Of a DNA stretch of 33,556 bases, positions 4,125 through 31,942 are shown one piece after another. This DNA comes from Gemmatimonadales bacterium (GTDB lineage Bacteria > Gemmatimonadota > Gemmatimonadetes > Gemmatimonadales > GWC2-71-9). The stretch covers positions 1 through 33,556 of the forward strand of contig DASSTP010000143.1 in assembly GCA_035707845.1 (NCBI GenBank), given 5' to 3'. The position numbers were made by a program, and so were the translations under genes. Under the pieces are notes generated by a model. It had not been told where the DNA came from. It worked only from the letters and a program-made list of their open reading frames with translations, and did no database searches. Numbering within the stretch: the first letter of the stretch is position 1; every line of letters starts with the position of its first letter.

Positions 4125-6333
4125 CCCGGCGCCGCTGATCGTGGCGGAGTCACTGCGGCTTGCCGCCGAGCCGCCGGTGCCGGCGCAGGACCTGTCGCCC
4201 GCGTCATCGGCAACCGTGGCGGCATCGCTAGCGCGACTTGCATGTCCACGCATGGCACCCGACGTCCCACCGCCCTGGCTGCGGCCGGCGCAGGTGGAGC
4301 CGTGGCGCAGGGTGGTGAGCGCGGTACGCGGATTTCGCGGCGCACTGCTGGCGGAGCCGCCAGGCACCGGCAAGACCTGGATCGCGCTTGCCGCGGCGCT
4401 GGCCCTCACGCGGCGGCCCGTCGCCTGCCTGGTGCCGGCGGTGGTCCAGGCGCAGTGGCGCGTCGTGGCCGCGCGCATCGGCGTACCCTTGTCGATTGGC
4501 ACGCACGAGCAGGCGAGTCGCGGCCGGCTTCCATCCTGTCACGAACTGGTGATCGTGGATGAGAGCCACCATTACCGGAACGCGGCCATCAAGCGCTATG
4601 CGCATGTGGCGCGCTGGATGGCCGGTCGGCAGTCGATCCTGCTGTCGGGAACGCCGGTGGTCAATCGGCTGGACGACCTGCTCCACCAGCTCGCACTCGC
4701 CATCCGGGATGATGCGCTCGCACTTCATGGCCTGCCGTCGCTCCGCGCGCTGGGCCAGCGGCCGGAGTTTCCCGAAGCGATGACACGTATCGTGATCCGC
4801 TCGCCGGCACCCAGCGCCCTGCCCAGGCAGCGGTCTCGAACGGTGCATTTCCGCCTGGGGCTGCGCGTGAGCCATGTGCTTCGTGCCATTCGCGCGCTTG
4901 ACATCAGCCCTGACCGGGGTGTGCGGACCCTGGTGCGGGGCGTGCTCATGCGGGCAGCGGCGTCCAGTCCGGCCGCACTCGCTGGTGCACTGAGGCGCTA
5001 TGGCTTCCTGCTCGCCAATCACGCCGACGCGGTGCGGTCGGGGTGCGCGGTGAGTCGCGACGACCTGCGGCGATGGGCCGGCGCCGGAGGCGAGCAGACG
5101 GTGATGTGGGCCATCGTGCGCGACGGCAGTGAGGGCGCCCAGCTCTGTCCCGATGACGCCGTGCGGGTCCGCGCGCTGCTCGCACTGCTGGCCGACATCA
5201 CGCCCGCCGACGATCCCAAGGCGGCCCTCCTCGCCAACCTGCTGGCTGACGGACGGCGAACCCTGGTCTTCACCTGCTCACGCGAGTCGGTGGCCTGGCT
5301 TCGCCGCGCACTCGGCTATCACCGCACCGCATGGTGCACCGGCGAGGGCGCCGGCATCGGCATGGCGCGCTGGCCTCGTGACGAGGTGCTGCGACTGTTC
5401 GGACCCGATGCAAGGGAGCAGGCACCTGCCATCCTTGTCAGCACCGACATCGCCGCCGAAGGGCTCGACCTGCAGCGCGCCGAACGCGTCGTCCACTATG
5501 ACCTGCCCTGGACGCCAGCTCGGCTGGCGCAGCGGGTGGGCCGGGCAGCGCGCCTCGGTGCGGCCGTGGCCGAGGTGGAGGTGGTGCGATTCGATCCGCC
5601 TCGCATGATCGAGCGAGCCATCCATTCGGTGCGCATCCTGAAGGAAAAGGCGGAGTTGCCACAGCGCGCCCGGCTGGTAAACGTCGGGCTGGGCGGATGG
5701 CCCCCGGTCGTAGCCAACGCCGGCGCCGCTGCGGCCTCTCGCGGTGGCATTGCCGTGATCGCTGACACCACGCGCCAAGGCGTCCTGGCCGGTCTCGAGA
5801 TCACCGGCTTCGACGAGCAGGGCCGCCTGGTATCGGGTGGACGATTGCTCTGGGTAGATGCCCAGGGGTGGAGCGACCGACTCGCCGACCTCACCGGTCC
5901 GCTGGTCGAAGCGCTCGCAGCCGATGGCGAACCACCGCCGGGCGAGCGCATCCGGCGCATGGCGCGTGCAAAGGTGGATGTGGCCGTCAACCAGCTTCTC
6001 AGTACGCTCAATGGCAGCATCTGGGAACGGAGCCGGCGGCCGGAACTCGCCGCGCTGATCGAGCGGCTCCGTCACGTGCGGCGCCGGGCAGTGGAGCAGC
6101 GTGACGCGGCGACCGCGGGGCTGGTGTCCGGTGTGCTGCGGCTGGCCGCCTCCGGCCGCACGGCGGGTGAAACCCTCCTGCTCAAGGAACTCACCCGTAC
6201 GTCGGGTCGCTCCGCGCTCCGGGCCATGGCGCTCCTCCCCCGCGCCCGGCCGGTCCAGCGGTTCGAGGTGCGGGTGGCAGGGGTGGTTGTATTTGAAGAT
6301 GGACAGCTGGACAGGTGGACAGATGGACAGTGA
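4111..6333 (+). CDS. SNF2-family SF2 helicase/translocase (740 aa from ATG 4111)
   Basis: Same frame as ORF 3373..6333, but its first 246 codons overlap the methyltransferase gene. The ATG at 4111 overlaps the MTase TGA (4122-4124) by 14 nt. Motifs: LRPAQ, AEPPGTGKT (GTGKT codons 4363-4377), VIVDESHH (DESH 4558-4569), LLSGTPVVNRLDDL, STDIAAEGLDLQ, DLPWTPARLAQRVGRAARLG. ATG 4252 (MAPDVPPPW) is an alternative start. Confidence 0.8.
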   Translation: MHWPDPAPLIVAESLRLAAEPPVPAQDLSPASSATVAASLARLACPRMAPDVPPPWLRPAQVEPWRRVVSAVRGFRGALLAEPPGTGKTWIALAAALALTRRPVACLVPAVVQAQWRVVAARIGVPLSIGTHEQASRGRLPSCHELVIVDESHHYRNAAIKRYAHVARWMAGRQSILLSGTPVVNRLDDLLHQLALAIRDDALALHGLPSLRALGQRPEFPEAMTRIVIRSPAPSALPRQRSRTVHFRLGLRVSHVLRAIRALDISPDRGVRTLVRGVLMRAAASSPAALAGALRRYGFLLANHADAVRSGCAVSRDDLRRWAGAGGEQTVMWAIVRDGSEGAQLCPDDAVRVRALLALLADITPADDPKAALLANLLADGRRTLVFTCSRESVAWLRRALGYHRTAWCTGEGAGIGMARWPRDEVLRLFGPDAREQAPAILVSTDIAAEGLDLQRAERVVHYDLPWTPARLAQRVGRAARLGAAVAEVEVVRFDPPRMIERAIHSVRILKEKAELPQRARLVNVGLGGWPPVVANAGAAAASRGGIAVIADTTRQGVLAGLEITGFDEQGRLVSGGRLLWVDAQGWSDRLADLTGPLVEALAADGEPPPGERIRRMARAKVDVAVNQLLSTLNGSIWERSRRPELAALIERLRHVRRRAVEQRDAATAGLVSGVLRLAASGRTAGETLLLKELTRTSGRSALRAMALLPRARPVQRFEVRVAGVVVFEDGQLDRWTDGQ

Positions 6334-6464
6334 TGGTCGCAGGTCGCAGGTCACAAGTCGCGCGTGCTCGACCGCTGACGACCACTGTCCAACTGTCCAA
6401 CTGTCCAACTGTCCAACTGTCCAACTGTCCAACTGTCCACCTGTCCACCTGTCCATCCGTCCGT
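6301..6464. repeat. Opposed arrays of tandem octamers: GGACAGNT x4 (6301-6330) facing CTGTCCNN x9 (6385-6456, plus degenerate CCGTCCGT), with GGTCGCA-type heptamers (6335-6362) between them
   Basis: Read directly. The left arm is GGACAGCT GGACAGGT GGACAGAT GGACAG. The right arm is 6x CTGTCCAA, 2x CTGTCCAC and 1x CTGTCCAT. GGACAG is the reverse complement of CTGTCC. The inner segment is GGTCGCA GGTCGCA GGTCACA AGTCGCG. The helicase stop TGA (6331-6333) sits between the arrays. Confidence 0.9.
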
Positions 6465-6478
6465 CTATATTTGCTGCC

Positions 6479-7147: not shown

Positions 7148-7173
7148 ACCCCGCGACTGCCAGGACCTGATAG

Positions 7174-7796: not shown

Positions 7797-8825
7797 ATGG
7801 AGCCGACCATCGGGCTGGTGCTGGGCATCATCGCGGTCGCGCTCTTCTTCGATTTCATCAACGGGTTTCACGACAGCGCTAATTCCATCGCCACCGTCGT
7901 CTCCACCCGCGTGCTGTCACCCGGTGTGGCGGTCTTCTGGGCGGCGTTCTTCAATTTTGCCGCGGCATTCATCGTGGGCACCGCCGTGGCCAGGACCATC
8001 GGCGCCGGCCTGGTGGACCCCGCGGTCGTGGATCCAATCGTGGTGCTAGCCGGCCTGCTCGGCGCCATCGTGTGGGACCTGATCACCTGGTGGCTCGGGC
8101 TGCCGACATCGTCGAGCCATGCACTGCTGGGCGGCTACGGCGGCGCCGCCATCGCGAAGGGCGGCTTCAACGCTCTGATCCTGGGCGGCTGGGTCAAGCC
8201 GATTCTGTTCATCGTGATCTCGCCCGTGCTGGGCCTCATTCTCGCGCTCTCCATCACCGTCCTGCTCAGCTGGCTGCTGCGCTTCGCCCGGCCCGGACCG
8301 GTGGATCGCGCATTCCGCAGGCTGCAGCTCGTCTCGGCAGGACTCTATTCCCTCAGTCATGGCGCCAATGACGCTCAGAAGACCATGGGCATTGTGGTGG
8401 GGCTGCTGGTGTCCACCCAGGCGCTCTTCGCCAATTCGACGGGCTGGATGCACCACCTCTACCTGCCGAACGCCGACCATGTCCCGCTTTGGATCGAGAT
8501 GGGCGCCTACACCGCGATTGCGCTCGGTACGGCAATGGGTGGCTGGCGAATCGTGAAGACCATGGGCACGCGCATCACCCGCCTGCGCCCGTTCGGCGGA
8601 TTCTGCGCCGAGACCGCCGGCGGCATCTCGGTGCTGATCGCGTCGGCGCTGGGTGTGCCGGTGAGCACCACCCATACCATCACCGGCGCCATCGTCGGCG
8701 TGGGCGCGGCCCAGCGTCCCACGGCAGTGCGCTGGAACGTCGCCACGCGCATCGTCTGGGCGTGGGTGCTGACGATCCCGCTCGCCGCAGTGATTGCGGC
8801 GTTGTGTTATCTGAGCCTGAGGTGA
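7797..8825 (+). CDS. Inorganic phosphate transporter, PiT family (342 aa)
   Basis: Internal ATG 7797 of ORF 7599..8825, 2 nt after the DUF47 stop. The duplicated PiT signature is present: FDFINGFHDSANSIATVV near the N-terminus and SLSHGANDAQKTMG in the second half. The protein is polytopic and hydrophobic. Confidence 0.9.
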   Translation: MEPTIGLVLGIIAVALFFDFINGFHDSANSIATVVSTRVLSPGVAVFWAAFFNFAAAFIVGTAVARTIGAGLVDPAVVDPIVVLAGLLGAIVWDLITWWLGLPTSSSHALLGGYGGAAIAKGGFNALILGGWVKPILFIVISPVLGLILALSITVLLSWLLRFARPGPVDRAFRRLQLVSAGLYSLSHGANDAQKTMGIVVGLLVSTQALFANSTGWMHHLYLPNADHVPLWIEMGAYTAIALGTAMGGWRIVKTMGTRITRLRPFGGFCAETAGGISVLIASALGVPVSTTHTITGAIVGVGAAQRPTAVRWNVATRIVWAWVLTIPLAAVIAALCYLSLR

Positions 8826-8866
8826 CCAGGCCGGCGCCAGACGTCCGGCGCCCGACGCCAGGCGCA

Positions 8867-9601
8867 ATGAGCAAGGTTCCGGCTGCCACCCTGCTCTTCT
8901 GGGTCATCAAGATTGCGGCGACCACGCTGGGTGAGACCGGCGGCGATGCCGTCTCCATGTCCATGGGGCTTGGCTATCTCGCCGCGACCGGCATCTTCGC
9001 CGTCATCTTCCTCGCCGCGGTGAGCGCCCAGATCGCCGCGCAGCGCTTCCGGCCCTTCCTCTACTGGCTCACCATCATTGCCACGACGACGGTCGGCACG
9101 ACCCTCGCTGACTTTGCCGATCGTTCGCTCGGCATCGGATACGCCGGCGGCTCCTCGCTGCTGCTGGTCCTGCTGCTCGCGTCACTGGCGACCTGGTACT
9201 TCACCATGGGGTCGGTGTCGATCGAGACGGTGCGCTCTCCCCGCACCGAAATGTTCTATTGGGTCACCATCATGTTCTCCCAGACACTCGGCACCGCCCT
9301 CGGCGACTGGGTGGCCGACTCCGCCGGAATGGGATACGGTGGGGCCGCCGTGCTGTTCGGCGGCCTGCTGCTGGTCGTGGCCGCGGGGTACGCGTGGACC
9401 AGGGCCTCACGCACCCTGCTTTTCTGGGCCGCGTTTGTGCTGACCCGGCCACTCGGCGCTGTGGTGGGTGACTTCCTCGACAAGCCCCTCACCCAGGGCG
9501 GAATGGCGCTGAGCCGTTACTCGGCGTCGGCCGTGCTGCTGGGGTTCATCATCATGATGCTGGTCCTCTTTCCCTCGAAGCCGGCGGAGGCGGGACACTA
9601 G
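8867..9601 (+). CDS. Conserved polytopic membrane protein (COG4705-like), 244 aa
   Basis: Internal ATG 8867 of ORF 8489..9601. The sequence KVPAATLLFWVIKIAATTLGETGGD ... TTTVGTTLADFADRSLGIGY ... FSQTLGTALGDW ... LTRPLGAVVGDFLDKP shows an internal repeat of TLG(E/D)-type helices that I recognise from this uncharacterised family. Confidence 0.7.
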   Translation: MSKVPAATLLFWVIKIAATTLGETGGDAVSMSMGLGYLAATGIFAVIFLAAVSAQIAAQRFRPFLYWLTIIATTTVGTTLADFADRSLGIGYAGGSSLLLVLLLASLATWYFTMGSVSIETVRSPRTEMFYWVTIMFSQTLGTALGDWVADSAGMGYGGAAVLFGGLLLVVAAGYAWTRASRTLLFWAAFVLTRPLGAVVGDFLDKPLTQGGMALSRYSASAVLLGFIIMMLVLFPSKPAEAGH

Positions 9602-9605
9602 GAGA

Positions 9606-9633
9606 GGTCACGGGTCGCGGGTCGCGGGTCACG
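9606..9633. repeat. Tandem heptamers GGTCACG GGTCGCG GGTCGCG GGTCACG
   Basis: Read directly. The array starts 5 nt after the TAG stop (9599-9601) of the membrane protein gene. The same GGTCRCR unit occurs at 6335-6362, 2 nt after the helicase stop. Confidence 0.9.
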
Positions 9634-9648
9634 AAGCTCGCCTGACGC

Positions 9649-9688
9649 GTCATTGCGAGGAGAGCCCGAAGGGCTCGACGAAGCAATC
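9649..9688. repeat. Imperfect palindromic element GTCATTGCGAGGAGAGCCC-GAA-GGGCTCGACGAAGCAATC
   Basis: The inner stem GAGCCC/GGGCTC has a GAA loop, and the outer ATTGC/GCAAT arms are separated by an internal loop. The CATTGCGAGG...CGAAGCAATC arms resemble a small palindromic repeat I have seen in many unrelated bacterial genomes. I cannot name it. Confidence 0.55.
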
Positions 9689-9689
9689 G

Positions 9690-9766
9690 GCTCACAGCTC
9701 ACGGCTCACAGCTCACAGCTCACAGCTCTCGGCTCACAGCTCACAGCTCACAGCTCACAGCTTTCG
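9690..9766. repeat. Tandem heptamer array, 11 units of GCTCACA (variants GCTCACG, GCTCTCG, GCTTTCG)
   Basis: Read directly, with perfect 7-nt phasing from 9690 to 9766. It ends 4 nt before the stop (9771-9773) of the minus-strand alcohol dehydrogenase gene. Confidence 0.9.
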
Positions 9767-9770
9767 GCCT

Positions 9771-10823
9771 TCAGCGCCCCTTCAACGACGCCATGTCGAT
9801 CACGAAGCGGTACTTCACGTCACTCTTCAGCATCCGCTCCCAGGCCGTGTTGATCTCATCCATCCGGATGACCTCGATCTTTGCGGTGATGCCATGCTTC
9901 CCGCAGAAGTCGAGCATCTCCTGGGTTTCCTGAATCCCACCGATCAGCGATCCGGCGATGGACTTGCGATGGAAGATCAGGTCCATGGCTGAGTGGGGCG
10001 GATGCGGCGTTGGCGGCACGCCCACGAGGCACAGCGCACCGTCGCGCTTGAGCGCCGAGAGGAGCGGATCGAGCTGGTGTTGCGCCGCGACGGTGTCGAG
10101 GATGAAGTCGAACGTTCCTTCCGCGCGCTTCATCTCGGCCGCATCGGTCGAGACCACCGTGTGGGCGGCGCCGAGTTTCATGGCGTCAGCGCGCTTGGCC
10201 GGCGACGTGGTGAACACCGTCACCTCGGCGCCCATCGCGGCCGCCAGCTGCACCGCCATGTGCCCGAGCCCGCCCAGCCCGACGACGGCCACGTTGGCGC
10301 CGGGCCCGACGTGCCAGTGGCGGAGGGGCGAGTACGTCGTGATGCCGGCGCACAGCAGCGGCGCTGCCGCCGCAGGGTCAAGATTTTCGGGGATGGAGAG
10401 CACAAAGTCGTCGGTGACCACGATATTGGTCGAGTAGCCGCCTGCGGTGGTGCCGCCCATCACCGGGTCAGGCGAACCATAGGTCATGGTGAACCCGCCG
10501 GTGCAGTAATTCTCGAGGTGGTCCCGGCAACTCGAACAGGTGCGGCAGGAGTCCACCAGGCAGCCCACACCCACCAGTTGCCCGGGCTTGAATCGCCTGA
10601 CGTCAGCGCCAACCGCCGTGACCCGGCCGACGATCTCGTGACCCGGAATTACGGGATAGGTGGCAGGGAACCACTCGCTCCGGGCGAAGTGCAGGTCGGA
10701 GTGGCAGACGCCACAGAAAAGAATGTCGATCGCGACGTCGTGTGGGCCTGGCGTGCGGCGTTCGATGGTGGTGCTCCGGAGCGGTGACGTGGGGTCGAAT
10801 GCGGCGTAGGCGGCGGTTGCCAT
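9771..10823 (-). CDS. Zn-dependent NAD(P) alcohol dehydrogenase (cinnamyl-ADH / YahK-like), 350 aa
   Basis: ORF 9771..10823. It has the catalytic Zn motif CGVCHSDLH...GHEIVGRV, a structural-Zn Cys cluster (CRTCSSCRDHLENYC) and the Rossmann motif VVGLGGLGH. Confidence 0.9.
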   Translation of the reverse strand: MATAAYAAFDPTSPLRSTTIERRTPGPHDVAIDILFCGVCHSDLHFARSEWFPATYPVIPGHEIVGRVTAVGADVRRFKPGQLVGVGCLVDSCRTCSSCRDHLENYCTGGFTMTYGSPDPVMGGTTAGGYSTNIVVTDDFVLSIPENLDPAAAAPLLCAGITTYSPLRHWHVGPGANVAVVGLGGLGHMAVQLAAAMGAEVTVFTTSPAKRADAMKLGAAHTVVSTDAAEMKRAEGTFDFILDTVAAQHQLDPLLSALKRDGALCLVGVPPTPHPPHSAMDLIFHRKSIAGSLIGGIQETQEMLDFCGKHGITAKIEVIRMDEINTAWERMLKSDVKYRFVIDMASLKGR

Positions 10824-10867
10824 GGCGGGGGACCGGTTGGGGGTTGGATGGCGCTGGAGACGGTAAG

Positions 10868-10873
10868 ATTATA
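10868..10873 (-). promoter_or_regulatory. Candidate -10 box (perfect TATAAT on the minus strand) upstream of the alcohol dehydrogenase gene
   Basis: Forward ATTATA at 10868-10873 reads TATAAT on the minus strand, 44 nt upstream of the ATG at 10823, in a rare AT-rich patch. No convincing -35 is present (ACGCCG at the 17-nt spacing). Confidence 0.25.
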
Positions 10874-10983
10874 GTGGCTCGGCGGCTCGGCGGCGTAGCT
10901 TGCCCTGAGCGCAGCGAAGGGGCGGCTCGAGGGTAAGAACCAGCCGTCCAGTCGTCTCACACATCAACCTTCCTTCACCTACT

Positions 10984-11682
10984 ATGAGACCTCCCGCACT
11001 TACACTCGCTCTTGCCTGCTGCGTCGTCGGCTCGCTCGCGTGCCAGGCGCCTGACCCGCTGCGCACTGACTGGGCCGACCTGGCTCGCTATCGGGAAGCG
11101 AATGCGAAGCTGGCGCCGCCCAGGCCAGGCGAGCAGCGCGTCGTCTTCATGGGCAACTCCATCACCGACGGCTGGGCGCAGTACTTCCCGGCCATGTTCC
11201 CGGGCAAGCCCTACGTGGGCCGGGGCATCAGCGGCCAGACCACACCGCAGATGCTGGTGCGGTTCCGGCAGGATGTCATCGCCCTGAAGCCGGCGGTGGT
11301 GGTCATCCTTGCCGGCACCAATGACATCGCGGGCAACACCGGACCCTCCACCCTCGCGATGATCGAGGACAACCTCGCGTCCATGACCGAACTGGCGCAG
11401 GCGAATGGCATCAAGGTGGTGCTCGCCTCGGTGCTGCCGGTATATGACTATCCCTGGAAGCCGGGCCTCGCGCCGGCGGAGAAGATCGTGACGCTCAACC
11501 GCTGGATGCGGGACTACGCATCTGCCCATCACGCCGTCTATCTCGACTACCACTCCGCGATGGCGGATGAACGGCAGGGCATGCGGAAGGACCTCTCCGG
11601 CGACGGCGTGCACCCGAACGAGGCGGGCTACCGGATCATGGCCCCGCTGGCCGAGCGGGCCATCAGCCAGGCGCTGCAATAG
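10984..11682 (+). CDS. SGNH/GDSL-family hydrolase with lipoprotein-type signal peptide
   Basis: ORF 10984..11682. The signal is LALACCVVGSLAC. SGNH blocks: FMGNSITDGW (Ser), GISGQT (Gly), AGTNDIAG (Asn), DGVHPNEAGY (Asp-x-x-His). Confidence 0.85.
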   Translation: MRPPALTLALACCVVGSLACQAPDPLRTDWADLARYREANAKLAPPRPGEQRVVFMGNSITDGWAQYFPAMFPGKPYVGRGISGQTTPQMLVRFRQDVIALKPAVVVILAGTNDIAGNTGPSTLAMIEDNLASMTELAQANGIKVVLASVLPVYDYPWKPGLAPAEKIVTLNRWMRDYASAHHAVYLDYHSAMADERQGMRKDLSGDGVHPNEAGYRIMAPLAERAISQALQ

Positions 11683-11703
11683 CCGCCTTACCACATCCTG
11701 CCC

Positions 11704-13386
11704 ATGCCCTCACGCCGAGACTTTCTCCAGACTACCGCCGTGTCCGCGCTGGGCATGTCCCTGCCGCCGGGGACACTTGTCGCACAGGAACGCTCGCACA
11801 ACCGGAGCGGTCGGGCGGACACCTTCCTGGATATTCGCCGCACACCCGACCGGGTCAGCGCCCAGCTCGCGAATGATCGCCGGCAGCTCCGCCGGACCGG
11901 CAGCGACCGTTGGGAGAATGCCGGTGTCACGGTCATCACCAGCGCTGCGGATACCGCGCTTGCGGTCAAGGTCGCTGCACCGTCCACCGCCGTCGAGTGG
12001 ATCCACCTTCGGTGGGACGGGCAGCTCGACGGGCTCCAGCTCATCCTTGGCGATGCCTGGGAGCGAGGCTACGGCGACCTCGAATGGCGCGGCTTCGTGC
12101 CCGACCGGGTCATGCCGTGGTACGTGGCCGCATTCGATGGGGAGGTGACCCATGCGTGGGGCGTGCGCACCGGCGCCAGGGCATTCTGCTACTGGCAGCT
12201 GGATCCGCAGGGGATCACGTTGTCGGCGGATGTCCGGAGCGGTGGCACTGGTCTGGAGCTCGGCTCGCGCACCCTGGACGTCTGTCAGGTGACCTGCCGC
12301 GCCGGCAAGCCGGATGAAGCATCGTTCGCCGCGGTGCATGCCTTCTGCGGGATAATGTGCCCCAACCCTCGGCTCGTTTCCCAGCCTGTGTACGGCAGCA
12401 ACGACTGGTACTGGGCTTATGGGAAGAACAGCACCGCCACGGTGCTCGCTGACGCCGGGCACATCGTGGAACTCTCGCCGGACAGCGCCAACCGTCCCTT
12501 CGTCGTGATCGACGACGGCTGGCAGCCCGAACGCAGCGCCAGGGGCGGCAACGTCGGCCTCTGGGATCGTGGAAACGAAAAATTTTCCGACCTTCCCGGC
12601 CTCGCGTCGAGAATCCGCGAGACAGGCGCGCAGCCCGGCATCTGGATCCGGCCACTGCTTGCACCGGATGACACGCCGCGGAGCTGGCGGTTGCCACGCG
12701 ACCAGAAGATCCTTGACCCAACGATCCCCGACGTGCGCCAGAAAGTGGCCGCCGACATTGCCCGGCTCCGTCAGTGGGGTTTCGGGCTGATCAAGCACGA
12801 CTATTCGACGGTGGACATCCTGGGGCGCTGGGGTTTCGAAATGGGGTCGGAACTCACCAGCGATGGATGGACATTCGCCAGCGGCCCCGGCCGAACCACC
12901 GCCGAGGTCATCAACGAATTCTACGGAACAATCCGGCACGCGGCGGACGATGGGATCATCCTCGGCTGCAACACGGTGAGTCATCTCTCGGCGGGGCAGT
13001 TTGAACTGTGCCGAGCCGGCGACGACACCAGCGGCACCGACTGGTCTCGAACCCGCAAGATGGGGGTCAACACGCTGGCCTTCCGGGGGCCCCAGCATGC
13101 CGCGTTTTATGGCGTGGATCCGGACTGCGTGGGCGTCACCAACCAGATTCCCTGGCCGCTGAACCGCCAATGGCTCGATCTGGCCGCCAGGAGCGGGACG
13201 ATGCTCTTTGTTTCACTTGCGCCGGACGCGCTGGGCGAGGCACAACGACGGGACCTCCGCTCCGCACTCGCGATCGCCGCGGAGCCGCAGCCATTAGGTG
13301 AGCCACTGGACTGGCAGCACACGACCTGGCCCACGCGCTGGCGCCTGATGGACGACACGCGGGTGTACGATTGGATTCCTGACTAG
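11704..13386 (+). CDS. Tat-exported glycoside hydrolase, alpha-galactosidase-like (clan GH-D flavour)
   Basis: ORF 11704..13386. The twin-arginine signal is MPSRRDFLQTTAVSALG. The VIDDGWQ and LIKHDYS segments resemble the DDGW and nucleophile K-x-D motifs of GH27/GH36-type enzymes. Family assignment is tentative. Confidence 0.6.
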   Translation: MPSRRDFLQTTAVSALGMSLPPGTLVAQERSHNRSGRADTFLDIRRTPDRVSAQLANDRRQLRRTGSDRWENAGVTVITSAADTALAVKVAAPSTAVEWIHLRWDGQLDGLQLILGDAWERGYGDLEWRGFVPDRVMPWYVAAFDGEVTHAWGVRTGARAFCYWQLDPQGITLSADVRSGGTGLELGSRTLDVCQVTCRAGKPDEASFAAVHAFCGIMCPNPRLVSQPVYGSNDWYWAYGKNSTATVLADAGHIVELSPDSANRPFVVIDDGWQPERSARGGNVGLWDRGNEKFSDLPGLASRIRETGAQPGIWIRPLLAPDDTPRSWRLPRDQKILDPTIPDVRQKVAADIARLRQWGFGLIKHDYSTVDILGRWGFEMGSELTSDGWTFASGPGRTTAEVINEFYGTIRHAADDGIILGCNTVSHLSAGQFELCRAGDDTSGTDWSRTRKMGVNTLAFRGPQHAAFYGVDPDCVGVTNQIPWPLNRQWLDLAARSGTMLFVSLAPDALGEAQRRDLRSALAIAAEPQPLGEPLDWQHTTWPTRWRLMDDTRVYDWIPD

Positions 13387-13411
13387 CATGGACGCGAGGC
13401 GCCGGGCGCCC

Positions 13412-13467
13412 GGCGTCAAGCGCCTGGCGCTCGACGCATGGCGCTCGACGCATGGCGCTCGACGCAT
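13412..13467. repeat. 13-mer GGCGTCAAGCGCC (13412-13424) followed by 3 tandem 14-mers GGCGCTCGACGCAT (13426-13467)
   Basis: Read directly in the 85-nt gap between the convergent stops at 13386 (+) and 13472 (-). The same 13-mer plus GCTCGAC repeats recur at 29992-30029. Confidence 0.9.
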
Positions 13468-13471
13468 GACG

Positions 13472-14767: not shown

Positions 14768-14933
14768 GCCGCCTCCACTTTGGGAAAACCGGATGGACGT
14801 TCAGTGTAACGGGGCACTCCCGCGCAGGCCACTGGGTGTACTGCTTGCGGGCCACGCAGCCGCCAGACAGATTCGAGCTGGCAATCCTTCGTCATTCGGC
14901 GTGTTCGAGCCCACTGGCAAGCCCTGGATTCCG

Positions 14934-16449: not shown

Positions 16450-16471
16450 CCCACCTACAAAGGAGCCTCCC

Positions 16472-17029: not shown

Positions 17030-17040
17030 TGGGCCAGACG

Positions 17041-18809: not shown

Positions 18810-18847
18810 CCATCTCGTGGTCGAACTCCTTCAGGAACCCTTCATTC

Positions 18848-21047: not shown

Positions 21048-21051
21048 GGCA

Positions 21052-24414: not shown

Positions 24415-24475
24415 GGGCATGGGGCATGGGGCGTGGGGCGTGGGGTCTCAAGCCCCATGCCTCATGCCTCATGCC
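24415..24475. repeat. Heptamer hairpin / G-tract array: GGG CAT GGGG CAT GGGG CGT GGGG CGT GGGG - loop - GCCCCAT GCCTCAT GCCTCAT GCC
   Basis: Read directly. It fills most of the 69-nt argF'-argB gap (24400-24468). Pairing 24423-24445 with 24453-24475 includes four G:T positions. Confidence 0.9.
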
Positions 24476-25476
24476 ATCAGTTCCAGCAACAACGCCCGCT
24501 GCACATGCAACCGGTTTTCCGCCTCGTCCACCACGACCGAGTGGGGGCCGTCGAGCACCGCGTCATCGATCTCCACGTTGCGGCGGACCGGGAGACAGTG
24601 CATCACGATGCCGGCGCCGGCACGGGTCGCCTGCTGGCGCTCGGCGGTCATCCGCCAGTGCCGGTACGGTTCACGCAGGACGCCCTCGGCCTCCGGCCGC
24701 CCGAACGCGTTGAGGGCGCCCCAGGACTTCACGTAGACGGCGTCCGCGTCTGCCAGCGCGACATCGAGGTCTTCCGATTCCGTCACGGAACCGCCGGCAT
24801 CCGCGGCGCAACGTGCGATTGTCGCCATGTCGTCCGGATCGAGCGCATAGCCAGGTGGCCGGGCAATCACCACGTCCATGCCCATCATCGCGCCGGCGAC
24901 GGCGGCGCTCGCGGGCACCGCAGTCGGCAGTGGCTTGGGATGCCAGGCCCAGGCGAGCACGAATTTCTTCCGACGAGTGTCACCCAGCTTTTCACGGAGC
25001 GTCATCGCGTCGGCCAGGCCCTGGCAGGGATGCCGCCGTGTGCTCTCCATGTTGATGACCGGCTTGGACGAGTAGCGGGCAAAGTCCCGGATGATCCGGT
25101 CCTCACGCGCCACGTCCCATGTCCCGCCCTTGGGAAAGGCACGCACGGCGAGCGCGTCGGCATAGCGCGAGAGGACCCGCGCCGCCTCGATGACGTGCTC
25201 CACCGAGGTCCCGTCCATCACCACGCCGTGCTCGGTCTCGAGCGTCCAGCTTCCCTTGCCGGGCTCGAGGATGAGGGCGTGTCCGCCGTGCAGGAACATC
25301 CCGGTCTCGAAGCTCGACCGGGTGCGGAGGCTCGGGTCCATGAAGATGGCCGCCAGCACCTTGCGCTCGAGGCCGCCGGTGACCTCTCCCTGCTTGATGC
25401 GCGCGGCCAGCGCCAGCAATTGCTCGACGCCGTCCCGCCCCCAGTCTTCCATGGCGAGAAAATCGCGGCCGCTCAC
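24469..25476 (-). CDS. argF': N-acyl-L-ornithine carbamoyltransferase (AOTCase/SOTCase type, not a canonical OTCase), 335 aa
   Basis: ORF 24469..25476 (GTG start overlapping the argD stop as GTGA). Carbamoyl-phosphate motifs are SLRTRSSFE and HPCQGLAD. The OTCase D-x-x-x-S-M-G ornithine loop is replaced by VYVKSWGAL. MHCLPVRRN, WTLETEHGVVMDG and ENRLHVQ match the acyl-ornithine transcarbamylases of Xanthomonas and Bacteroides as I remember them. Confidence 0.8.
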   Translation of the reverse strand: MSGRDFLAMEDWGRDGVEQLLALAARIKQGEVTGGLERKVLAAIFMDPSLRTRSSFETGMFLHGGHALILEPGKGSWTLETEHGVVMDGTSVEHVIEAARVLSRYADALAVRAFPKGGTWDVAREDRIIRDFARYSSKPVINMESTRRHPCQGLADAMTLREKLGDTRRKKFVLAWAWHPKPLPTAVPASAAVAGAMMGMDVVIARPPGYALDPDDMATIARCAADAGGSVTESEDLDVALADADAVYVKSWGALNAFGRPEAEGVLREPYRHWRMTAERQQATRAGAGIVMHCLPVRRNVEIDDAVLDGPHSVVVDEAENRLHVQRALLLELMA

Positions 25477-28755: not shown

Positions 28756-29963
28756 GATTCGCCTCCTGCAGCGTGCTCCGCTGCCCGTACCGCAAGCAGC
28801 GATGGAATGGCGGCCACCCGCGCAAAGTCGCGGGCTTCCTCACCGGTCCAGAGCCGGTTCTCCTCGCCATAGGTGGCGACGGCCGGATCCATCATCGAGA
28901 ACGGACTCCGCGCGCCCACCACCTGGAAGCGCCCGGGCCAGAGCCGCACGCGCGTCTCGCCAGTCACCCGCTGCTGCGAACTGCTGATCATCGCCTCGAT
29001 GTCCCGCAACGCCGGATCGAAATAGTGCCCTTCATGCAGGCGGTCGCCGTAGAAGCGGCCCAGTTGATCCTTCCAGAATGTCTGCCAGCGGGTGAGCACC
29101 AGCTTCTCGAGCTCGCGATGCGCACCGATGAGCATGAGCGCGGACCCCGCCTCGAAACCGATGCGCCCCTTGATGCCGAGCGCCGTTTCGCCCACGTGGA
29201 TGGCGCGGCCAATTCCATAGGATTCGGCGATCTCGCCCAGGCGATCCACCAGGTCGGCGCCGGTGAGCGCGGCGCCGCCGAGCGAGACCGGCGTGCCCGT
29301 CTCCCATCCGATCACGAGCTCCGCTGGCGCCGGCGCGTCAGCCGGCGGCTCGATCAGCTCGGCGGGCGGGCCGGCCCAGGTGTCGTGGGTCCAGCCACCG
29401 CCCCAGGTGGTGCCCCAGAGGCCGCGATTGATGGAATAGGCCGACGCCTTGGCGGGAACCGGAAGATTGCGGGCCTGGAGATAGGCGATCGACTGGTCAC
29501 GCGTCACGCCCTTCTCGCGGATGGGCGTGATGATGCCGAGCTCGGGCGCCAGCACCCGCAGGGCGATATCGAAGCGGATCTGGTCATTGCCCGCGCCGGT
29601 GGATCCGTGCGCCACCGCCGCCGCGCCGATCTGGCGCGCGACGTCAATGACCGAGATGGCCTGCTGGGTGCGCTCGGCGGCGACCGAAAGCGGATAGACC
29701 TCGCCCCGCAGCACGTTGCCCTGGATCAGGAAGCGCACGAAGCGGTCGAATACCGCAGCGCGGGCGTCCACCTCATGATGCTCCGCGGCGCCGACGGCCA
29801 TGGCCTGGCGGCGGATGGCCTCGCGCTCAGCGGCCGACGAGCCGCCGGTGTTGACGAAGACGGTGTGGACGTCGTGGCCCGCGTCGCGGAGGACGGGAAC
29901 GCAGTAGGAGGTATCGAGCCCGCCCGAGAAGGCCAGGGCGACGGTGGGACGCTTGGTGTGCAT
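28746..29963 (-). CDS. argG: Argininosuccinate synthase (405 aa)
   Basis: Internal ATG 29963 of ORF 28746..29999. Motifs: the ATP pyrophosphatase motif ALAFSGGLDTS, plus AHGSTGAGNDQIRF and GRIGFEAG. Confidence 0.95.
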   Translation of the reverse strand: MHTKRPTVALAFSGGLDTSYCVPVLRDAGHDVHTVFVNTGGSSAAEREAIRRQAMAVGAAEHHEVDARAAVFDRFVRFLIQGNVLRGEVYPLSVAAERTQQAISVIDVARQIGAAAVAHGSTGAGNDQIRFDIALRVLAPELGIITPIREKGVTRDQSIAYLQARNLPVPAKASAYSINRGLWGTTWGGGWTHDTWAGPPAELIEPPADAPAPAELVIGWETGTPVSLGGAALTGADLVDRLGEIAESYGIGRAIHVGETALGIKGRIGFEAGSALMLIGAHRELEKLVLTRWQTFWKDQLGRFYGDRLHEGHYFDPALRDIEAMISSSQQRVTGETRVRLWPGRFQVVGARSPFSMMDPAVATYGEENRLWTGEEARDFARVAAIPSLLAVRAAEHAAGGESWS

Positions 29964-29979
29964 AATGCATAAATATGCA
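29959..29979. promoter_or_regulatory. Candidate ARG-box operator: overlapping palindromes TGCATAATGCA (29959-29969) and TGCATAAATATGCA (29966-29979)
   Basis: This is the only strongly AT-rich patch in the region. The arms TGCATA/TATGCA are perfect around AA, and TGCAT/ATGCA are perfect around A. It overlaps the argG start codon (29961-29963), and an argR gene closes the same operon. TGCAT-containing ARG boxes are known in other lineages. Confidence 0.55.
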
Positions 29980-29999
29980 GAACGGCCGCCTGGCGTCAA
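29970..29999 (-). promoter_or_regulatory. Possible sigma70-like promoter of the arg operon (TTGACG - 18 nt - TATTTA), 6 nt before the argG ATG
   Basis: The minus strand reads TTGACG (29999-29994), an 18-nt spacer, TATTTA (29975-29970), TGCATT, then ATG (29963-29961). Caveat: the TTGACG lies inside the 13-mer GGCGCTTGACGCC, which also occurs at 13412-13424 where no promoter is expected. Confidence 0.3.
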
Positions 30000-30010
30000 G
30001 CGCCGAGCGC

Positions 30011-31942
30011 TTACCGCTCGACGCTCGACGCAACACCCAACCAGTCCAGGACCGCACCCCTCGCATCGGTCGTCCGCCGAACGCCCGTGCGCCCCGCCTG
30101 CACCCCAGCGCCCCAGGCGCAGAGCACCGTCGCCATGTCCGGATCGATCGAGGGGAATCCATGGTTGCCGTGCACGCCGGACGGCTCGACCACTGGTCCC
30201 GACGCGCGGCTATCGAGATCGTAGCCCGGCGCCACGCTGAAGTAGAGGTCGCCGCCCGCCGGTCCGCCTCGTCCCAGGGAATCGCCCCGGGCCACCCGCC
30301 AGGTCCGGGTCACGACCGGCTCACCATCGAGCCCGCGCACCGCGCGCAGGACTCGCTCCACCGAGTCGAGCACGGCGGCGGCATCCTCCGGCTTCACCAT
30401 GCCGTCACGCCAGCGAGTGCGGTTGAGCATGATGAAAAGTCCATCCCACGCCAGCGCGCGAGTGCCGCGCACATCCACCCGGCCACTGTCATCGGCCGCG
30501 AGGAGCCCTGCCTTGCGCAACGCGACATTCGGGTGAAAGACTCGCCAGAGCGGCCGCATGCCGTGGTCGCCGGCAACCCAGAGCCGGGCGGTGGAATCGC
30601 GGGCGACAAGATCCATCAGCGCGCCGAGGCGCAGGTCGGCCAACTGCCAGGCGCGTGCGCGGAAGGGCTGGATAGCCTGGCGCATCTCATCGCTGACGCC
30701 AGGCACTCCCTCGCTGGCAAAGCCGAGCCACCGGTGGTCGGCCTCGTCGATGCCGGGGTAGTAGTCGGCCTGCAGCCCTGGGCGGCGGGCATTCCATCCC
30801 CACGCGCTGCCGGCCATGAACGCCCGGGTCATGTTCTCCAGCCCATCGAGGTAGCGCCACTCGGCCTCGCCCGACCCGCCATCGGCGAGCGTGGGGCCAA
30901 ACGCGCCGCGATCGTAGAGCTCATCCGGCCCATTGCCGACCCAGCCATCGGTGGCGGCGTCGTACGCGTCGAGCACCTCCTCACGGTTGGCCTGCAGCGC
31001 GCTGAGTGCGGGGAGGAAGAGCATATAGCTGCTGGCATCGCCACCCAGCGCAAACAGACGCACCCGCACCCGCACCCGATGGCCACGCACGTGCACCGGG
31101 ATGCCGCGGGAGTAGTAGCGGGCCAGCGGACGATCAACCGGCGATGTGCGATCCGCCGGCATGGCCGGCACCAGCACGGCGCGCGCACCATCCCGCGCGG
31201 GGGCCACCGCAAGCCGAGTGTAGATCGAATCGCCGAGGAAAAGGCCGAACAGCGAATCCTCGCCTACCTGCCAGGCGATCTCGCGCGGCGGCAGCTCGCT
31301 GCCGAGCTTCTCGAGGTGCGTCCATGCGCCCATCACGTGTGGTGGCGCGCTGTCGGCGGTGAGCACCCGATCCGGCAGGAGGTGCTCGTCGTAACCGTTG
31401 ATCACCGCGAGGGATGGCAGGGCGAGCGCCTGCTCAGCGCGCGCGCGTGGACCGGATGCGGTTGGCGCACTGGTATCCGCCGGCGGATAGCCCGGCACGT
31501 CCGGCGACTGGGTGGTCTGGTGCGCCACGACGCGTCGCCCCGCCAGCGCGGCGGTAATCCAGATCGGCTCCGCGCGGAGCTGGGTGGCGCGATACCCGGT
31601 CGTGCCGTCCGTGATGCGGTGCAATTCCGAGGGGAGGAGCGGCACCCGGTTGGCAGTGATGCCGTTCGAGTCGCCGTACACGCCGGTCCAGAGCGAAGCA
31701 TGCGACGCCGCCGTCTTGCTGGGCCACGCTGGCAGCGCCCGGTCGGCGCACGCCCCGGCAGCGAAGAGCTGGCGGAAATGCGGGGTGGCCCAGGCCGGCA
31801 CTGTCTCGAGCATGCGGCGCTCGTTCATGGCATCGAAGCTCGCGAGCAGCGCCCGATGCGTGAGCGGTGCCGGCCTTGACGGCGCGGTACTATGGCAGGC
31901 GGTGAGCGCGATGGCTGCAAGCAGCCAGCGCGCCGTCACCAT
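30011..31942 (-). CDS. Nucleotide pyrophosphatase/phosphodiesterase (alkaline-phosphatase superfamily) lipoprotein, 643 aa
   Basis: Internal ATG 31942 of ORF 30011..32428 gives MVTARWLLAAIALTAC (lipobox). NPP motifs: WPSKTAASHASLWTGVYGDSNGITAN, VAGDHGM, GNHGF. The upstream part of the ORF overlaps the M42 gene. Confidence 0.8.
   Translation of the reverse strand: MVTARWLLAAIALTACHSTAPSRPAPLTHRALLASFDAMNERRMLETVPAWATPHFRQLFAAGACADRALPAWPSKTAASHASLWTGVYGDSNGITANRVPLLPSELHRITDGTTGYRATQLRAEPIWITAALAGRRVVAHQTTQSPDVPGYPPADTSAPTASGPRARAEQALALPSLAVINGYDEHLLPDRVLTADSAPPHVMGAWTHLEKLGSELPPREIAWQVGEDSLFGLFLGDSIYTRLAVAPARDGARAVLVPAMPADRTSPVDRPLARYYSRGIPVHVRGHRVRVRVRLFALGGDASSYMLFLPALSALQANREEVLDAYDAATDGWVGNGPDELYDRGAFGPTLADGGSGEAEWRYLDGLENMTRAFMAGSAWGWNARRPGLQADYYPGIDEADHRWLGFASEGVPGVSDEMRQAIQPFRARAWQLADLRLGALMDLVARDSTARLWVAGDHGMRPLWRVFHPNVALRKAGLLAADDSGRVDVRGTRALAWDGLFIMLNRTRWRDGMVKPEDAAAVLDSVERVLRAVRGLDGEPVVTRTWRVARGDSLGRGGPAGGDLYFSVAPGYDLDSRASGPVVEPSGVHGNHGFPSIDPDMATVLCAWGAGVQAGRTGVRRTTDARGAVLDWLGVASSVER

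Follow-up and report, generated by a model that had tools for sequence, protein, structure and literature searches.

What are the short tandem repeats that lie between the genes of the DNA analysed here (the window, a stretch of 33,556 nucleotides from a Gemmatimonadales soil bacterium), and how do they arise? Nearly every gap that follows a gene in this segment holds gene-end hairpins of tandem 7-base units. These arrays are a new example of the known, unexplained heptanucleotide repeats of bacteria, and not a new kind of element. We put at roughly 0.6 the probability that they are hypervariable, slippage-driven repeats, mostly of 7 nt (some of 8 or 14), of the heptanucleotide-SSR kind, serving as 3′-end RNA structures. 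Repeats of this kind are known from Xanthomonas, Burkholderia and cyanobacteria.

Arrays at gene ends

With TRF, 13 arrays of period 7 reach 3 copies or more in the window, against 0.47 expected (maximum 2) from thirty dinucleotide-preserving shuffles of it. Arrays take up 539 of 1345 intergenic bases (40%) and 178 of 31790 coding bases (0.6%). By the gene map and gap sequences of the window, they lie in 10/10 gaps with a gene 3′ end and in 0/4 divergent gaps. TRF and a sequence check recover all nine arrays described by an earlier sequence-only reading and add two, at 8831–8865 and 17045–17071. That reading also had most gaps longer than 60 nt occupied, which is true of 6 of the 8; the two without arrays are divergent promoter gaps. 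Its picture of microsatellite-like, mostly 7-nt arrays as a real hairpin-building class at gene 3′ ends is supported, as is a non-coding origin, though the last codons of genes are invaded. Terminators of the canonical U-tract kind show no enrichment, with 6 against an expected 5.7. The features, located with TRF, are as follows.

6297–6330, + strand: octamer array (AGATGGAC) x4.2, G-rich 5′ arm of an outer stem
6335–6361, + strand: heptamer array (GGTCGCA) x3.9, inner part of the 6297–6455 hairpin
6384–6455, + strand: octamer array (ACTGTCCA) x9, C-rich 3′ arm complementary to 6297–6330
8831–8865, + strand: 14-mer array (CCGGCGCCAGACGC) x2.5, filling the 41-nt PHO4/DUF347 gap
9606–9633, + strand: (GGTCRCG) x3.6–4, beginning 5 nt past the DUF347 stop codon
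9690–9766, − strand: (GCTCACA) x10.4–11 as read on the + strand, and (TGTGAGC)n on the strand that codes for Zn-ADH
13391–13474, unstranded: hairpin on a 14-mer (CGCATGGCGCTCGA) x3.4 (13421–13468), in the convergent gap between a 560-aa gene and a GGDEF gene
16355–16443, unstranded: (GCTGTGC) x6 facing (GCACAGC) x4, arms 16355–16398 and 16414–16443
17045–17071, − strand: (GCGCTCA) x3.9, within the 3′ end of a GT4 glycosyltransferase gene
18699–18800, unstranded: (GTGGGGC/ATGAGGC) x5.5 facing (GCCCCAT) x6.6, arms 18699–18733 and 18755–18800
20530–20602, unstranded: (GGCGTGR) x5 facing (CCCATGC/CTCACGC) x3, arms 20531–20567 and 20580–20602
24415–24475, unstranded: (GGGCRTG) x4.4 facing (CCYCATG) x3–4, arms 24415–24445 and 24447–24475
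29990–30031, unstranded: small hairpin GCGTCAA-GCGCCGA-GCG / CGCTCGA-CGCTCGA-CGC, detected as x2.4 at 30015–30031

As had been proposed, arrays supply the last residues of the helicase, CoxG (SRPBCC), D-aminoacylase and NPP. The octamers at 6297–6330 reach the stop codon at 6331–6333 and encode the helicase tail ...GQLDRWTDGQ; the 29990–30031 hairpin, which adjoins an ARG box upstream of argG, encodes the NPP tail ...ASSVER. The 17045–17071 array likewise encodes the GT4 tail ...AERLALSA. For two of these proteins the orthologues end differently: CoxG ends ...FAERVGRGA in the window, from the 18699 hairpin, versus ...FARRVSEAQTASSADGP in contig L004, and D-aminoacylase ends ...GPGVRRGA versus ...GPGWRKE. 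The 20530–20602 hairpin covers the stop codons of both D-aminoacylase (20551) and argR (20595). The 16355–16443 hairpin stands between the cyclophilin gene (stop 16361) and a 185-aa gene, the 24415–24475 hairpin within the arg operon between argF (stop 24469–24471) and argB (start 24399), and the 9690–9766 array beside the Zn-ADH stop codon at 9771.

Folding of the arrays

With a C-rich reverse-complement array downstream, the DNA strand or its transcript can fold into a hairpin of 25–45 bp, in several 7-nt registers. Window hairpins have minimum free energies of −54.8 to −89.5 kcal/mol (z −5.4 to −9.9), matched by 0/200 shuffles. The region 6290–6470 folds at −83.5 kcal/mol (z −7.3), 13391–13474 at −55.9 and −60.3, 16355–16443 at −69.4 and −68.3 (z −6.2 and −7.9), and 20530–20602 at −59.5 and −49.9. 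The + strand of 18699–18800 folds at −89.5 kcal/mol and its − strand at −78.8; the corresponding values for 24415–24475 are −54.8 and −42.1. The small hairpin at 29990–30031 (−25.7 kcal/mol, z −3.3) has GGCGTCAAGCGCC...CGCTCGACGC in common with that at 13391–13474. Speaking against the proposed role as 3′-end structures, several arrays have no complementary partner, among them those at 8831, 9606 and 9690 and a (GCTGTGC)x9 array of L004. The 9606–9633 array, G-rich on the coding strand, has no significant fold (z −1.1), and (GCTCACA)x11 pairs weakly with itself.

We infer a role for the hairpins at mRNA 3′ ends. They would be factor-independent 3′-end structures that persist where harmless or useful, and might serve as terminators without a U-tract, as barriers to 3′-to-5′ exonucleases or as insulators between cistrons. 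The results presented here do not depend on such a role. The REP/BIME-like role suggested earlier, in termination or mRNA stabilisation, is plausible from position. For the three GGGGCRT-type loci it had been pointed out that the G-rich arm lies on the left of the + strand whatever the gene orientation; part of this is trivial, since the two strands of an inverted repeat read alike. In the same three hairpins the G.T pairs fall on the + strand irrespective of gene orientation, and in the argF-argB hairpins discussed below the antisense strand folds more stably in 15/23; selection on the sense transcript alone therefore does not fit.

Copy-number change between strains

Strain contigs 98–99% identical differ in their arrays by whole units, +7, +14 and +28 nt, so that the "register-shifting" ascribed to these repeats is seen directly among conspecific contigs. 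Contig L161 matches the window at 99.13% over 19.4 kb, and all 21 gap positions fall within two arrays: the left arm of the 18699–18800 hairpin gains two units (+14 nt), and the 20530–20602 hairpin gains one (+7 nt), as it does in L162. The 16355–16443 hairpin is unchanged in L161. In L166 the 9606 array is x8, a gain of +28 nt or four GGTCGCG units; in L165 it is x7 and includes variant units. The (GCTCACA) array at 9690 has x11 in L166, as in the window, and x5 in L165. Substitutions also occur in the 8831–8865 array of L165, and the strain comparison gives 0.030 substitutions per site in arrays versus ~0.0065 elsewhere. The arrays thus expand and contract in whole units, as replication slippage predicts.

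An assembly artefact might be suspected, as short-read contigs frequently end at arrays; L165 and L161, for instance, independently end at the 13391–13474 hairpin. We give this virtually no credence. The same arrays, differing by whole units, are present in assemblies made independently (ENA ERZ16264126 and ERZ16264127, NCBI JACZCT01, JGI contigs), and unrelated genomes, dozens of MAGs and isolates, contain analogous ones.

The same gaps of related genomes hold different units or no array. The helicase-HAD gap of L001 is only ~5 nt long and has no array, and no array is present in its argF-argB gap; no single hairpin is therefore essential. At the gap of 29990–30031, L001 has a larger hairpin of different units, and in the D-aminoacylase/argR gap both L004 and L001 carry units other than the window's. 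Another dispersed palindromic family is also seen in these gaps in relatives.

The argF-argB gap

In array-less relatives the argF/argB overlap reads GGAGGAGTGAGATGAC or GGAGGAGTGAAATGAC, and hairpin-bearing relatives have, at exactly this overlap, the units GTGAGAC, GTGAAAC, GTGAACG and GTGAGCG. This directly indicates that the array was seeded from local sequence at the stop codon. In ~22 lineages the units in this gap differ and the opposite arm always matches; units are homogenised within each arm, and the arms remain complementary, G.T being tolerated.

These observations bear on whether the arrays are a functionless by-product, in which slippage repeats accumulate where harmless, behind stop codons but not in promoters, and the arms become complementary through template-switch copying between them, not through selection. 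Differences among close relatives in array presence and unit, copy-number polymorphism within the species, the want of a consistent preference for the sense or antisense strand, and unequal arms (4 versus 9 copies at 6297/6384) all agree with it, as does the lack of arrays in divergent gaps, which purifying selection on promoters would give. Against it, the argF-argB hairpin is kept in many lineages with ArgF only 65–75% identical to that of the window, its arms complementary despite unit drift, and a compensatory pair (TTAAG/CTTAA versus TCAAG/CTTGA) distinguishes contigs L081 and L162 from each other. The G-first polarity described below is also unexpected under undirected template switching. 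We therefore regard the by-product reading as rather unlikely.

Two contigs ~99.7% identical have unrelated hairpins between argF and argB; L162 and L081 carry a GAGTTGA hairpin instead of the window's. The replaced tract, 106 nt, includes the whole hairpin with a new loop, the alleles are non-homologous, and scattered substitutions flank it. Entire hairpins are swapped or rewritten between strains.

Polarity and unit sharing across genomes

The class extends beyond the window. Period 7 leads all other periods in 2 Mb of loci, both related and unrelated, with 132 arrays versus 46 of period 6, 66 of period 8 and 45 of period 9, and 70/132 heptamer arrays have an inverted partner versus 6/132 in the control. 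The 5′ arm has G>C in 35/37 array hairpins of these loci; ordinary inverted repeats (n=706) show no G polarity, splitting 292 to 292. Across loci, G>C holds on the coding strand in 44/61 arrays adjoining the end of a long ORF.

The units had been called locus-specific, which is overstated, because they recur between loci of one genome: GGGGCRT at three loci of the window, GGTCRCR at two (the 6335–6361 array belongs to the same unit family as that at 9606) and GCTCGAC at two. GCTGTGC, GCTCACA and GCGCTCA differ from one another by one base. Elsewhere, GGTGAGC recurs at 3 sites in L124 and CGTGAGA/GGTGAGA in L131. Units are shared by 19/75 site pairs within contigs versus 194/3411 between contigs.

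Three features are left over by slippage plus selection alone: the strictness of the G-first polarity, the recurrence of units at several loci of a genome, and the replacement of a whole hairpin at ~99.7% identity. All three would suit an active writing or rewriting of arrays by directional DNA synthesis, not ordinary slippage. Such synthesis might copy a genome-specific template, or might extend the two 3′ ends at a double-strand break or cleaved hairpin reiteratively before they are joined. It would yield the G-rich strand 5′-to-3′ toward the centre from both sides. The unequal copy numbers of the two arms are a further point in its favour. Rearrangement junctions also speak for it. The 18699–18800 hairpin occupies the place of the DinB-like gene of L004, exactly at the deletion junction, with a remnant of codons 1 to ~17 at 18800–18850 (− strand); the arrays at 8831–8865 and 17045–17071 form the left and right edges of an 8.3-kb block missing from L001. 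However, any intergenic element tends toward such junctions, the argF-argB units agree with the ancestral sequence of that place and so favour in-situ duplication, and the substitutions flanking the replaced tract resemble a short import by homologous recombination. No candidate enzyme or template was found in the window. We consider active writing improbable.

Comparison with known repeats

Spread of a mobile palindromic element (REP/BIME or MITE type) between intergenic sites by a transposase such as RAYT could also place one unit at several loci of a genome. Hairpin alleles that vary between strains, independent assemblies that break at arrays as at dispersed repeats, and the second palindromic family in the same gaps of relatives would fit it. 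Yet the copies of a family agree in the unit only and differ in arm length, variant order, loop and flanks; they have no separate terminal inverted repeats, target-site duplication or conserved GTAG-type motif, and the argF-argB units derive from local sequence. Membership of REP/BIME fails: a conserved palindrome is lacking, and neither a RAYT nor any transposase is found in the window. This origin is highly improbable.

The sequence-only reading knew of no described family with this design, but close precedents exist in heptanucleotide SSRs, STRR and GGGAATC arrays. STRR heptamers occur in the cyanobacteria Calothrix and Nostoc. Mrazek et al. (2007), in the summary given by PMC4679880, described long SSRs in which heptanucleotides predominate. 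In Xanthomonas and Nostoc, GGGAATC / GGGGA(C/T)T arrays form 70–75 convergent inverted pairs per genome (Rehm 2015; PMC4692102).

The analogous Xanthomonas and Nostoc units form G-quadruplexes (G4) in vitro (PMC4692102). The G-rich arm might act here as a G4, a role put forward for GGGAATC repeats, or might offer 7-nt-spaced sites to a protein that binds RNA or DNA with a specificity of its own in each genome. Three loci have at least 4 runs of G3–4 with 3-nt loops (for example GGGCATGGGGCATGGGGCGTGGGGCGTGGGG at 24415), and the sharing of genome-specific units among loci would agree with co-evolution of repeat and trans factor. G-runs are nevertheless absent from most units of the window and related loci (GCTGTGC, GGTCGCG, GCTCACA, GAGTTGA, GTGAACG, AATTACG), pairing with the complementary arm would work against G4 folding, and the neighbouring genes suggest no binding protein; we think this very unlikely.

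Slippage-driven repeats serving as 3′-end structures remain our preferred reading. GGGAATC-type arrays lie on the coding strand at most 50 bp from stop codons or overlapping them, are under-represented between divergent ORFs, and differ in length from one relative to another (PMC4692102). The window arrays follow the same positional rules as these Xanthomonas repeats (PMC4692102).

Gene content and location of the arrays

The gene map of the window is based on Pfam scans and on the gene calls of a near-identical ENA contig. A GC3-based gene caller missed or mis-called several window genes and was therefore dropped from the census of gap classes. The G+C content across the window is 64–73%, and the nearest relatives of the D-aminoacylase are from Gemmatimonadales MAGs, with a best amino-acid identity of 82%, which places the window in a Gemmatimonadales species that the representative genome set lacks.

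Genes of the window, in order
PAS sensor, MmeI/Eco57I-type methylase, SNF2-type helicase
HAD, PhoU_div, PHO4, DUF347, Zn-ADH (Zn-ADH on the minus strand)
GDSL, 560-aa TAT protein, GGDEF (GGDEF on the minus strand)
HEAT-cyclophilin, 185-aa unknown, GT4 (GT4 on the minus strand)
CoxG, D-aminoacylase
argR-argH-argE-argB, array gap, argF-argD-argC-x-argG (minus strand)
NPP, M42

Nucleotides 1134–6333 encode an MmeI/Eco57I-type N6-methylase fusion of 996 aa, followed by a SNF2/ResIII helicase. The pair, which also occurs in L001, a partly syntenic locus of a related genome, probably forms a type IIG/ISP-like restriction system or else a BREX-like defence module.

All the arrays listed in the sequence-only reading were recovered at their positions by Tandem Repeats Finder and in the raw sequence, and Tandem Repeats Finder added two, at 8831–8865 and 17045–17071. 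Thirteen period-7 arrays reach three copies or more in the window, against a mean of 0.47 (maximum 2) in 30 dinucleotide-preserving shuffles of it. Arrays cover 539 of the 1345 intergenic bases (40%) and 178 of the 31790 coding bases (0.56%), the latter nearly all in last codons, which bears out the intergenic bias described earlier. An array is found in each of the ten gaps that hold a gene 3′ end (six co-directional and four convergent, including 17029–17041, whose array sits in the tail of GT4), and in none of the four divergent gaps. In the way of arrays, the gap 10823–10984 contains only an octamer of 2.4 copies. The suggestion that arrays supply the last residues of several proteins also holds, as these tails are array-encoded and the orthologues carry other C-terminal tails.

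Arrays and hairpins of the window
6297–6455, true hairpin (array facing its own reverse complement)
16355–16443, true hairpin
18699–18800, true hairpin, GGGGCRT type
20530–20602, true hairpin, GGGGCRT type
24415–24475, true hairpin, GGGGCRT type
13391–13474, smaller hairpin on the common GCTCGAC unit
29990–30031, smaller hairpin on the common GCTCGAC unit
9606–9633, array without a complementary partner
9690–9766, array without a complementary partner
8831–8865, 14-mer of 2.5 copies, without a complementary partner
17045–17071, (GCGCTCA) of 3.9 copies

Hairpins and strand asymmetry

Folding energies of the five true hairpins range from −55 to −90 kcal/mol, and their z scores from −5.4 to −9.9. 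At least five unit families are present in the window, the majority without G-runs (GCTGTGC, GGTCGCG, GCTCACA, TGGACAGN and GCTCGAC are such units). G-runs are found at only 3 of about 11 loci, the GGGGCRT ones, which by their sequence would be G4-capable.

The arm mismatches at the three GGGGCRT hairpins are all G.T on the + strand (A.C on the − strand), and the + strand folds 10–12 kcal/mol more stably, independent of gene orientation. In the 18699 hairpin, the units of the left arm are all GTGGGGC and those of the right arm all the complement of ATGGGGC; the uniformity within each arm indicates that the two arms were homogenised separately. The weak GC skew of the window does not allow the direction of replication to be assigned.

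A scan of the entire window against Rfam on both strands found no family reaching the gathering score. Terminators with a U-tract are not enriched in the window (6 found, 5.7 expected by chance), and none of the array hairpins is among these terminator-like hits.

Variation within the species

Slippage in unit steps is seen directly between contigs of the species. Contig L161 matches the window at 99.13% identity across 19.4 kb, and all 21 gap positions between them lie inside two arrays (+2 units at 18699, +1 at 20530). Substitutions and gap positions together amount to 0.061 per site in arrays versus 0.0075 outside. The GGTCGCG array has four copies in the window, eight in L166 and seven variant units in L165, and the GCTCACA array has eleven copies in the window versus five in L165. 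Array lengths thus change in steps of +7, +14 and +28 nt, and from ×5 to ×11, between contigs that are 98.4–99.1% identical.

Whole hairpins are also replaced. Two further contigs of the species, L162, with an ArgB identical to that of the window, and L081, which is 98.75% identical across 1358 nt of argF, carry in the argF-argB gap a GAGTTGA/TCAACTC hairpin wholly unlike that of the window. Outside a 106-nt tract containing the hairpin, L162 differs from L161 at 12 positions in about 4170 nt. The GAGTTGA type is also carried by L082, a related locus about 80% identical to the window and 82% to L081; because it is common to both, GAGTTGA is probably the ancestral allele and GGGGCRT, a type present at two further loci of the window genome, the newcomer. 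The replacement may represent either a brief import by recombination or rewriting on the spot, and we do not favor one over the other. A raised mutation rate in the array flanks was considered as the source of the allele difference and rejected, as the flank rates are not clearly raised (0.008, 0.021 and 0.007 per site at 1–25, 26–50 and 51–100 nt).

Separately, substitutions relative to L161 and L162 cluster at window 21000–21400 (about 25 in 400 nt) and 25200–25400 (15 in 200 nt), over a background of about 0.7% elsewhere. These clusters, one at the argR/argH boundary and the other within argF, look like short recombination tracts.

Some independent short-read contigs of the species terminate at arrays. 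L165 ends and L161 starts at array 13391–13474, the end of L081 falls within the argF-argB hairpin, and L163 begins about 45 nt past array 6384–6455. The contigs matched through PhoU_div are short and end before the flanking array gaps, and an exact-protein match for the long GT4 ORF gave no hit, probably owing to a wrong start codon. In practice, arrays fragment short-read assemblies and yield spurious C-terminal protein tails, and they are usable as strain-typing (VNTR) markers.

Orthologous gaps in related genomes

L004, another locus of a related genome, and L001 are both syntenic with the window over 17.1–30 kb, and L001 also over 1.7–8.8 kb. The same gap holds different repeats in these genomes.

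Contents of orthologous gaps
Gap 3′ of D-aminoacylase: window, GGCGTGR hairpin; L004, GGCTGGA-type repeat; L001, (GAAGTGA) ×3
argF-argB gap: window, GGGGCRT hairpin; L004, direct (GCTGTGC) ×9; L001, none
argG-NPP gap: window, small hairpin; L004, other downstream gene; L001, nested hairpin of CGAAGGA and CACGGAG units
Helicase-HAD gap: window, arrays of about 145 nt; L004, non-syntenic; L001, about 5 nt

In L004, a DinB-like gene on the minus strand (9511 to about 9990) separates CoxG and D-aminoacylase. The window retains only its first 17 or so codons (MAMNEGFLKEFDHEMEKH; 18800–18850, − strand), and the hairpin 18699–18800 occupies the place of the remaining DinB-like gene and of the original CoxG tail. 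An 8.3-kb block, window 8813–17120, comprises the eight genes from DUF347 through the 185-aa unknown and is missing from L001. Arrays lie at both edges of the block, and in L001 PHO4 and GT4 are convergent neighbors with about 10 nt between them.

The argF-argB gap was followed through 80 loci obtained from a metagenome scan with ArgF. In distant relatives the argF stop overlaps the argB start, reading GGAGGAGTGAGATGAC or GGAGGAGTGAAATGAC. A heptamer or octamer hairpin beginning at the argF stop codon is present in about 22 lineages, with units such as GTGAGAC, GTGAAAC, GTGAACG, GTGAGCG, GTAAGCG and GTAAGAA. Each unit is a variant of the ancestral local sequence and has its complement in the opposite arm, which points to hairpins that were seeded in situ and long retained, both arms evolving in concert. 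In a few lineages the gap contains a dispersed palindromic element of another kind.

General features of array-built hairpins

General rules were drawn from 2 Mb of fetched loci. The modal period is 7, with 132 arrays, compared with 46 of period 6, 66 of period 8 and 45 of period 9. An inverted two-unit partner lies within 200 nt of 70 of the 132 heptamer arrays, versus 6/132 for a reversed-unit control. Array hairpins were found in Gemmatimonadota, Saprospiraceae, other Bacteroidota and Phycisphaerae.

In 35 of 37 array hairpins G exceeds C in the 5′ arm, a property that is identical on either strand. Inverted repeats overlapping arrays are G-first rather than C-first by 37 to 8, and ordinary inverted repeats clear of arrays (n = 706) divide 292 to 292. 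G-first polarity is therefore general to array-built hairpins and absent in other inverted repeats. Among arrays adjoining an ORF end, judged by a crude test for the end of a long high-GC3 ORF, the coding strand has G>C in 44 of 61.

Units are shared within a genome: 19 of 75 site pairs inside one contig have the same unit versus 194 of 3411 between contigs. For instance, among three syntenic genomes, one has GGTGAGC at three sites at which another has CGTGAGA or GGTGAGA.

The proposal that a 7-nt unit with TGA or TAA serves as an all-frame stop was also considered. A stop trinucleotide is present in the G-rich-orientation units of 14 of 39 clusters, with 15.5 expected when their own letters are permuted. 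Since there is no enrichment beyond composition, stop codons were rejected as an independent driver.

Comparison with known repeats

The sequence-only reading knew of no described family with this design; the design has in fact been published (Mrazek 2007; STRR; Rehm 2015). Rehm et al. (2015) described the G-rich heptameric repeats GGGAATC in Xanthomonas and GGGGA(C/T)T in Nostoc, in 2–26 tandem copies whose number varies between relatives (PMC4692102). They are strongly intergenic, lie at most 50 bp from or over a stop codon, are G-rich on the coding strand and are scarce between divergent ORFs. Each genome has 70–75 convergent G-first inverted pairs capable of forming stem-loops; there is no link to mobile elements, and the authors left the function open (PMC4692102). 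The present arrays are alike in lying at gene 3′ ends (10/10; 0/4 divergent gaps), in having frequent inverted partners (70/132) and in being G-first in 35/37 hairpins. However, each Rehm genome has one dominant consensus unit, with G4-capable runs of three or four G and a preference for four units, whereas five or more unit families are present in the window and G-runs are found at only 3 of about 11 loci. Between Xanthomonas species the same repeat is kept at 83% of sites (PMC4692102), whereas units here differ between relatives of 78–82% identity, and strains of one species can differ as well. A further difference is the phylum, Gemmatimonadota.

The LSSRs of Mrazek, Guo & Shah (2007), as summarised in PMC4679880, have units of 5–11 nt, heptanucleotides being the commonest; they are phylogenetically scattered and biased to non-coding DNA, and polymerase slippage was suggested as their cause. 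The preference for period 7, the scattered phylogeny and the non-coding bias seen here agree with that summary, which makes no mention of a paired hairpin architecture or of G-first polarity. TAACTGA repeats are known from Beggiatoaceae, cyanobacteria and Bacteroidetes; unlike the arrays here, most sit immediately 5′ of start codons, and inverted sets are exceedingly rare (1 indirect against 169 direct) (PMC4679880). The present arrays resemble STRR and TAACTGA repeats in having several heptamer families per genome, an intergenic location and 7-nt-step indels between strains. STRR (short tandemly repeated repetitive) heptamers were reportedly described by Mazel et al. in 1990 in Calothrix, Anabaena and Nostoc; their units differ from ours in being AT-richer and conserved genus-wide. 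With above-chance head-to-tail copies, whole-unit changes and a non-coding excess, the arrays fall among heptanucleotide SSR/LSSR/STRR repeats.

REP/BIME elements, with proposed roles in mRNA stabilisation and termination, are likewise strain-variable intergenic hairpins at 3′ ends and in operon interiors. REPs, however, are imperfect palindromes of 20–40 nt with a conserved sequence, a GTAG-type motif and many near-identical copies, whereas the hairpins here consist of tandem units that change in unit steps and have no fixed sequence. No more than the 7-nt unit is common to the loci, which vary in loop, flanks and arm length. A Pfam scan found no RAYT (Y1 transposase) among the 27 window genes. 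As for MITEs, the three GGGGCRT hairpins show no target-site duplication at their borders and consist of array throughout, without a unique core. The hairpins share with intrinsic terminators a GC-rich stem-loop immediately 3′ of the stop codon, but their stems are 25–45 bp rather than 5–12 bp, the U-tract is absent and some lie within operons. None of the papers in the library searched gives an account of such repeats in Gemmatimonadota.

Compared with the published cases, the phylum, the several mostly non-G4 unit families and the much faster turnover are distinct or new. So are the strain-level allele replacement and the general G-first polarity of array-built hairpins.

Origin and possible role

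The safest statement is that the elements are heptanucleotide SSR hairpins. They slip in unit steps, and their hairpin potential is maintained. Their association with gene 3′ ends is established for the window and supported across loci. From this position and the absence of canonical terminators we infer a role as RNA structure at the 3′ end, in which they might act as U-tract-less terminators, exonuclease barriers or cistron insulators. A purely sense-RNA role is less easily accommodated. Selection on the sense transcript alone is expected to place G.U pairs on the sense strand, but the antisense fold is stabler in 15 of 23 argF-argB hairpins, and the G.T pairs of the GGGGCRT hairpins all lie on the + strand whatever the gene orientation. 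Selection of this kind alone was therefore rejected.

Slippage with selection leaves the G-first polarity, the unit families shared across a genome and the replacement of whole hairpins unexplained. For this reason we keep in view, as an improbable alternative, that the hairpins are products of a directional repeat-writing process and not passive microsatellites. Such a process could extend both 3′ ends of a break, or of a cleaved cruciform, by reiterating 7 nt and then join them, or it could be a templated rewriting specific to each genome. It would account for the near-absolute G-first polarity, the unit "dialects" common to unlinked loci of one genome, the swap of an entire hairpin between contigs about 99.7% identical, the hairpins at deletion or insertion junctions and the cross-phylum choice of exactly 7 nt. 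Against it, the window genes include no enzyme candidate.

In many bacterial genomes, no class of long microsatellite is as common as heptanucleotide repeats. The heptanucleotide SSR hairpins of this lineage offer a natural and dense set of comparisons, within-species polymorphism included, in which gaps can be traced from no repeat to a seeded array, a full hairpin and a replaced hairpin. Two rules are independent of the unit and testable on complete genomes: the G-rich 5′ arm, confined to array hairpins, and the sharing of units within a genome. The mechanism behind them would bear on replication slippage, on hairpin processing and on U-tract-less transcript 3′ ends in high-GC bacteria.

Other repeats and motifs

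A second palindromic repeat family, conserved in sequence (GTCATTGCGAG...GAAGCAATC and GTCAYCCTGAGCGNAGCGAAGG...), shares intergenic gaps with the heptamer hairpins. Its motif CTGAGCGNAGCGARGG occurs in 6 of 166 loci. The family is similar to the repeats behind spurious peptides such as 'VILSEAKDL' and 'CFASLAMT' in metagenome annotations.

Occurrences of the second palindromic family
9648–9690, window
10907–10930, window
L085, a related locus
argF-argB gap of the related loci L143, L155, L160 and L121

A palindrome, CATAATGCATAAATATGCAG, lies immediately 5′ of argG at window 29961–29980 and is kept in L004 and L001. By its sequence it looks like a candidate ARG box for ArgR, which is encoded at 20595–21047 at the end of the same operon.
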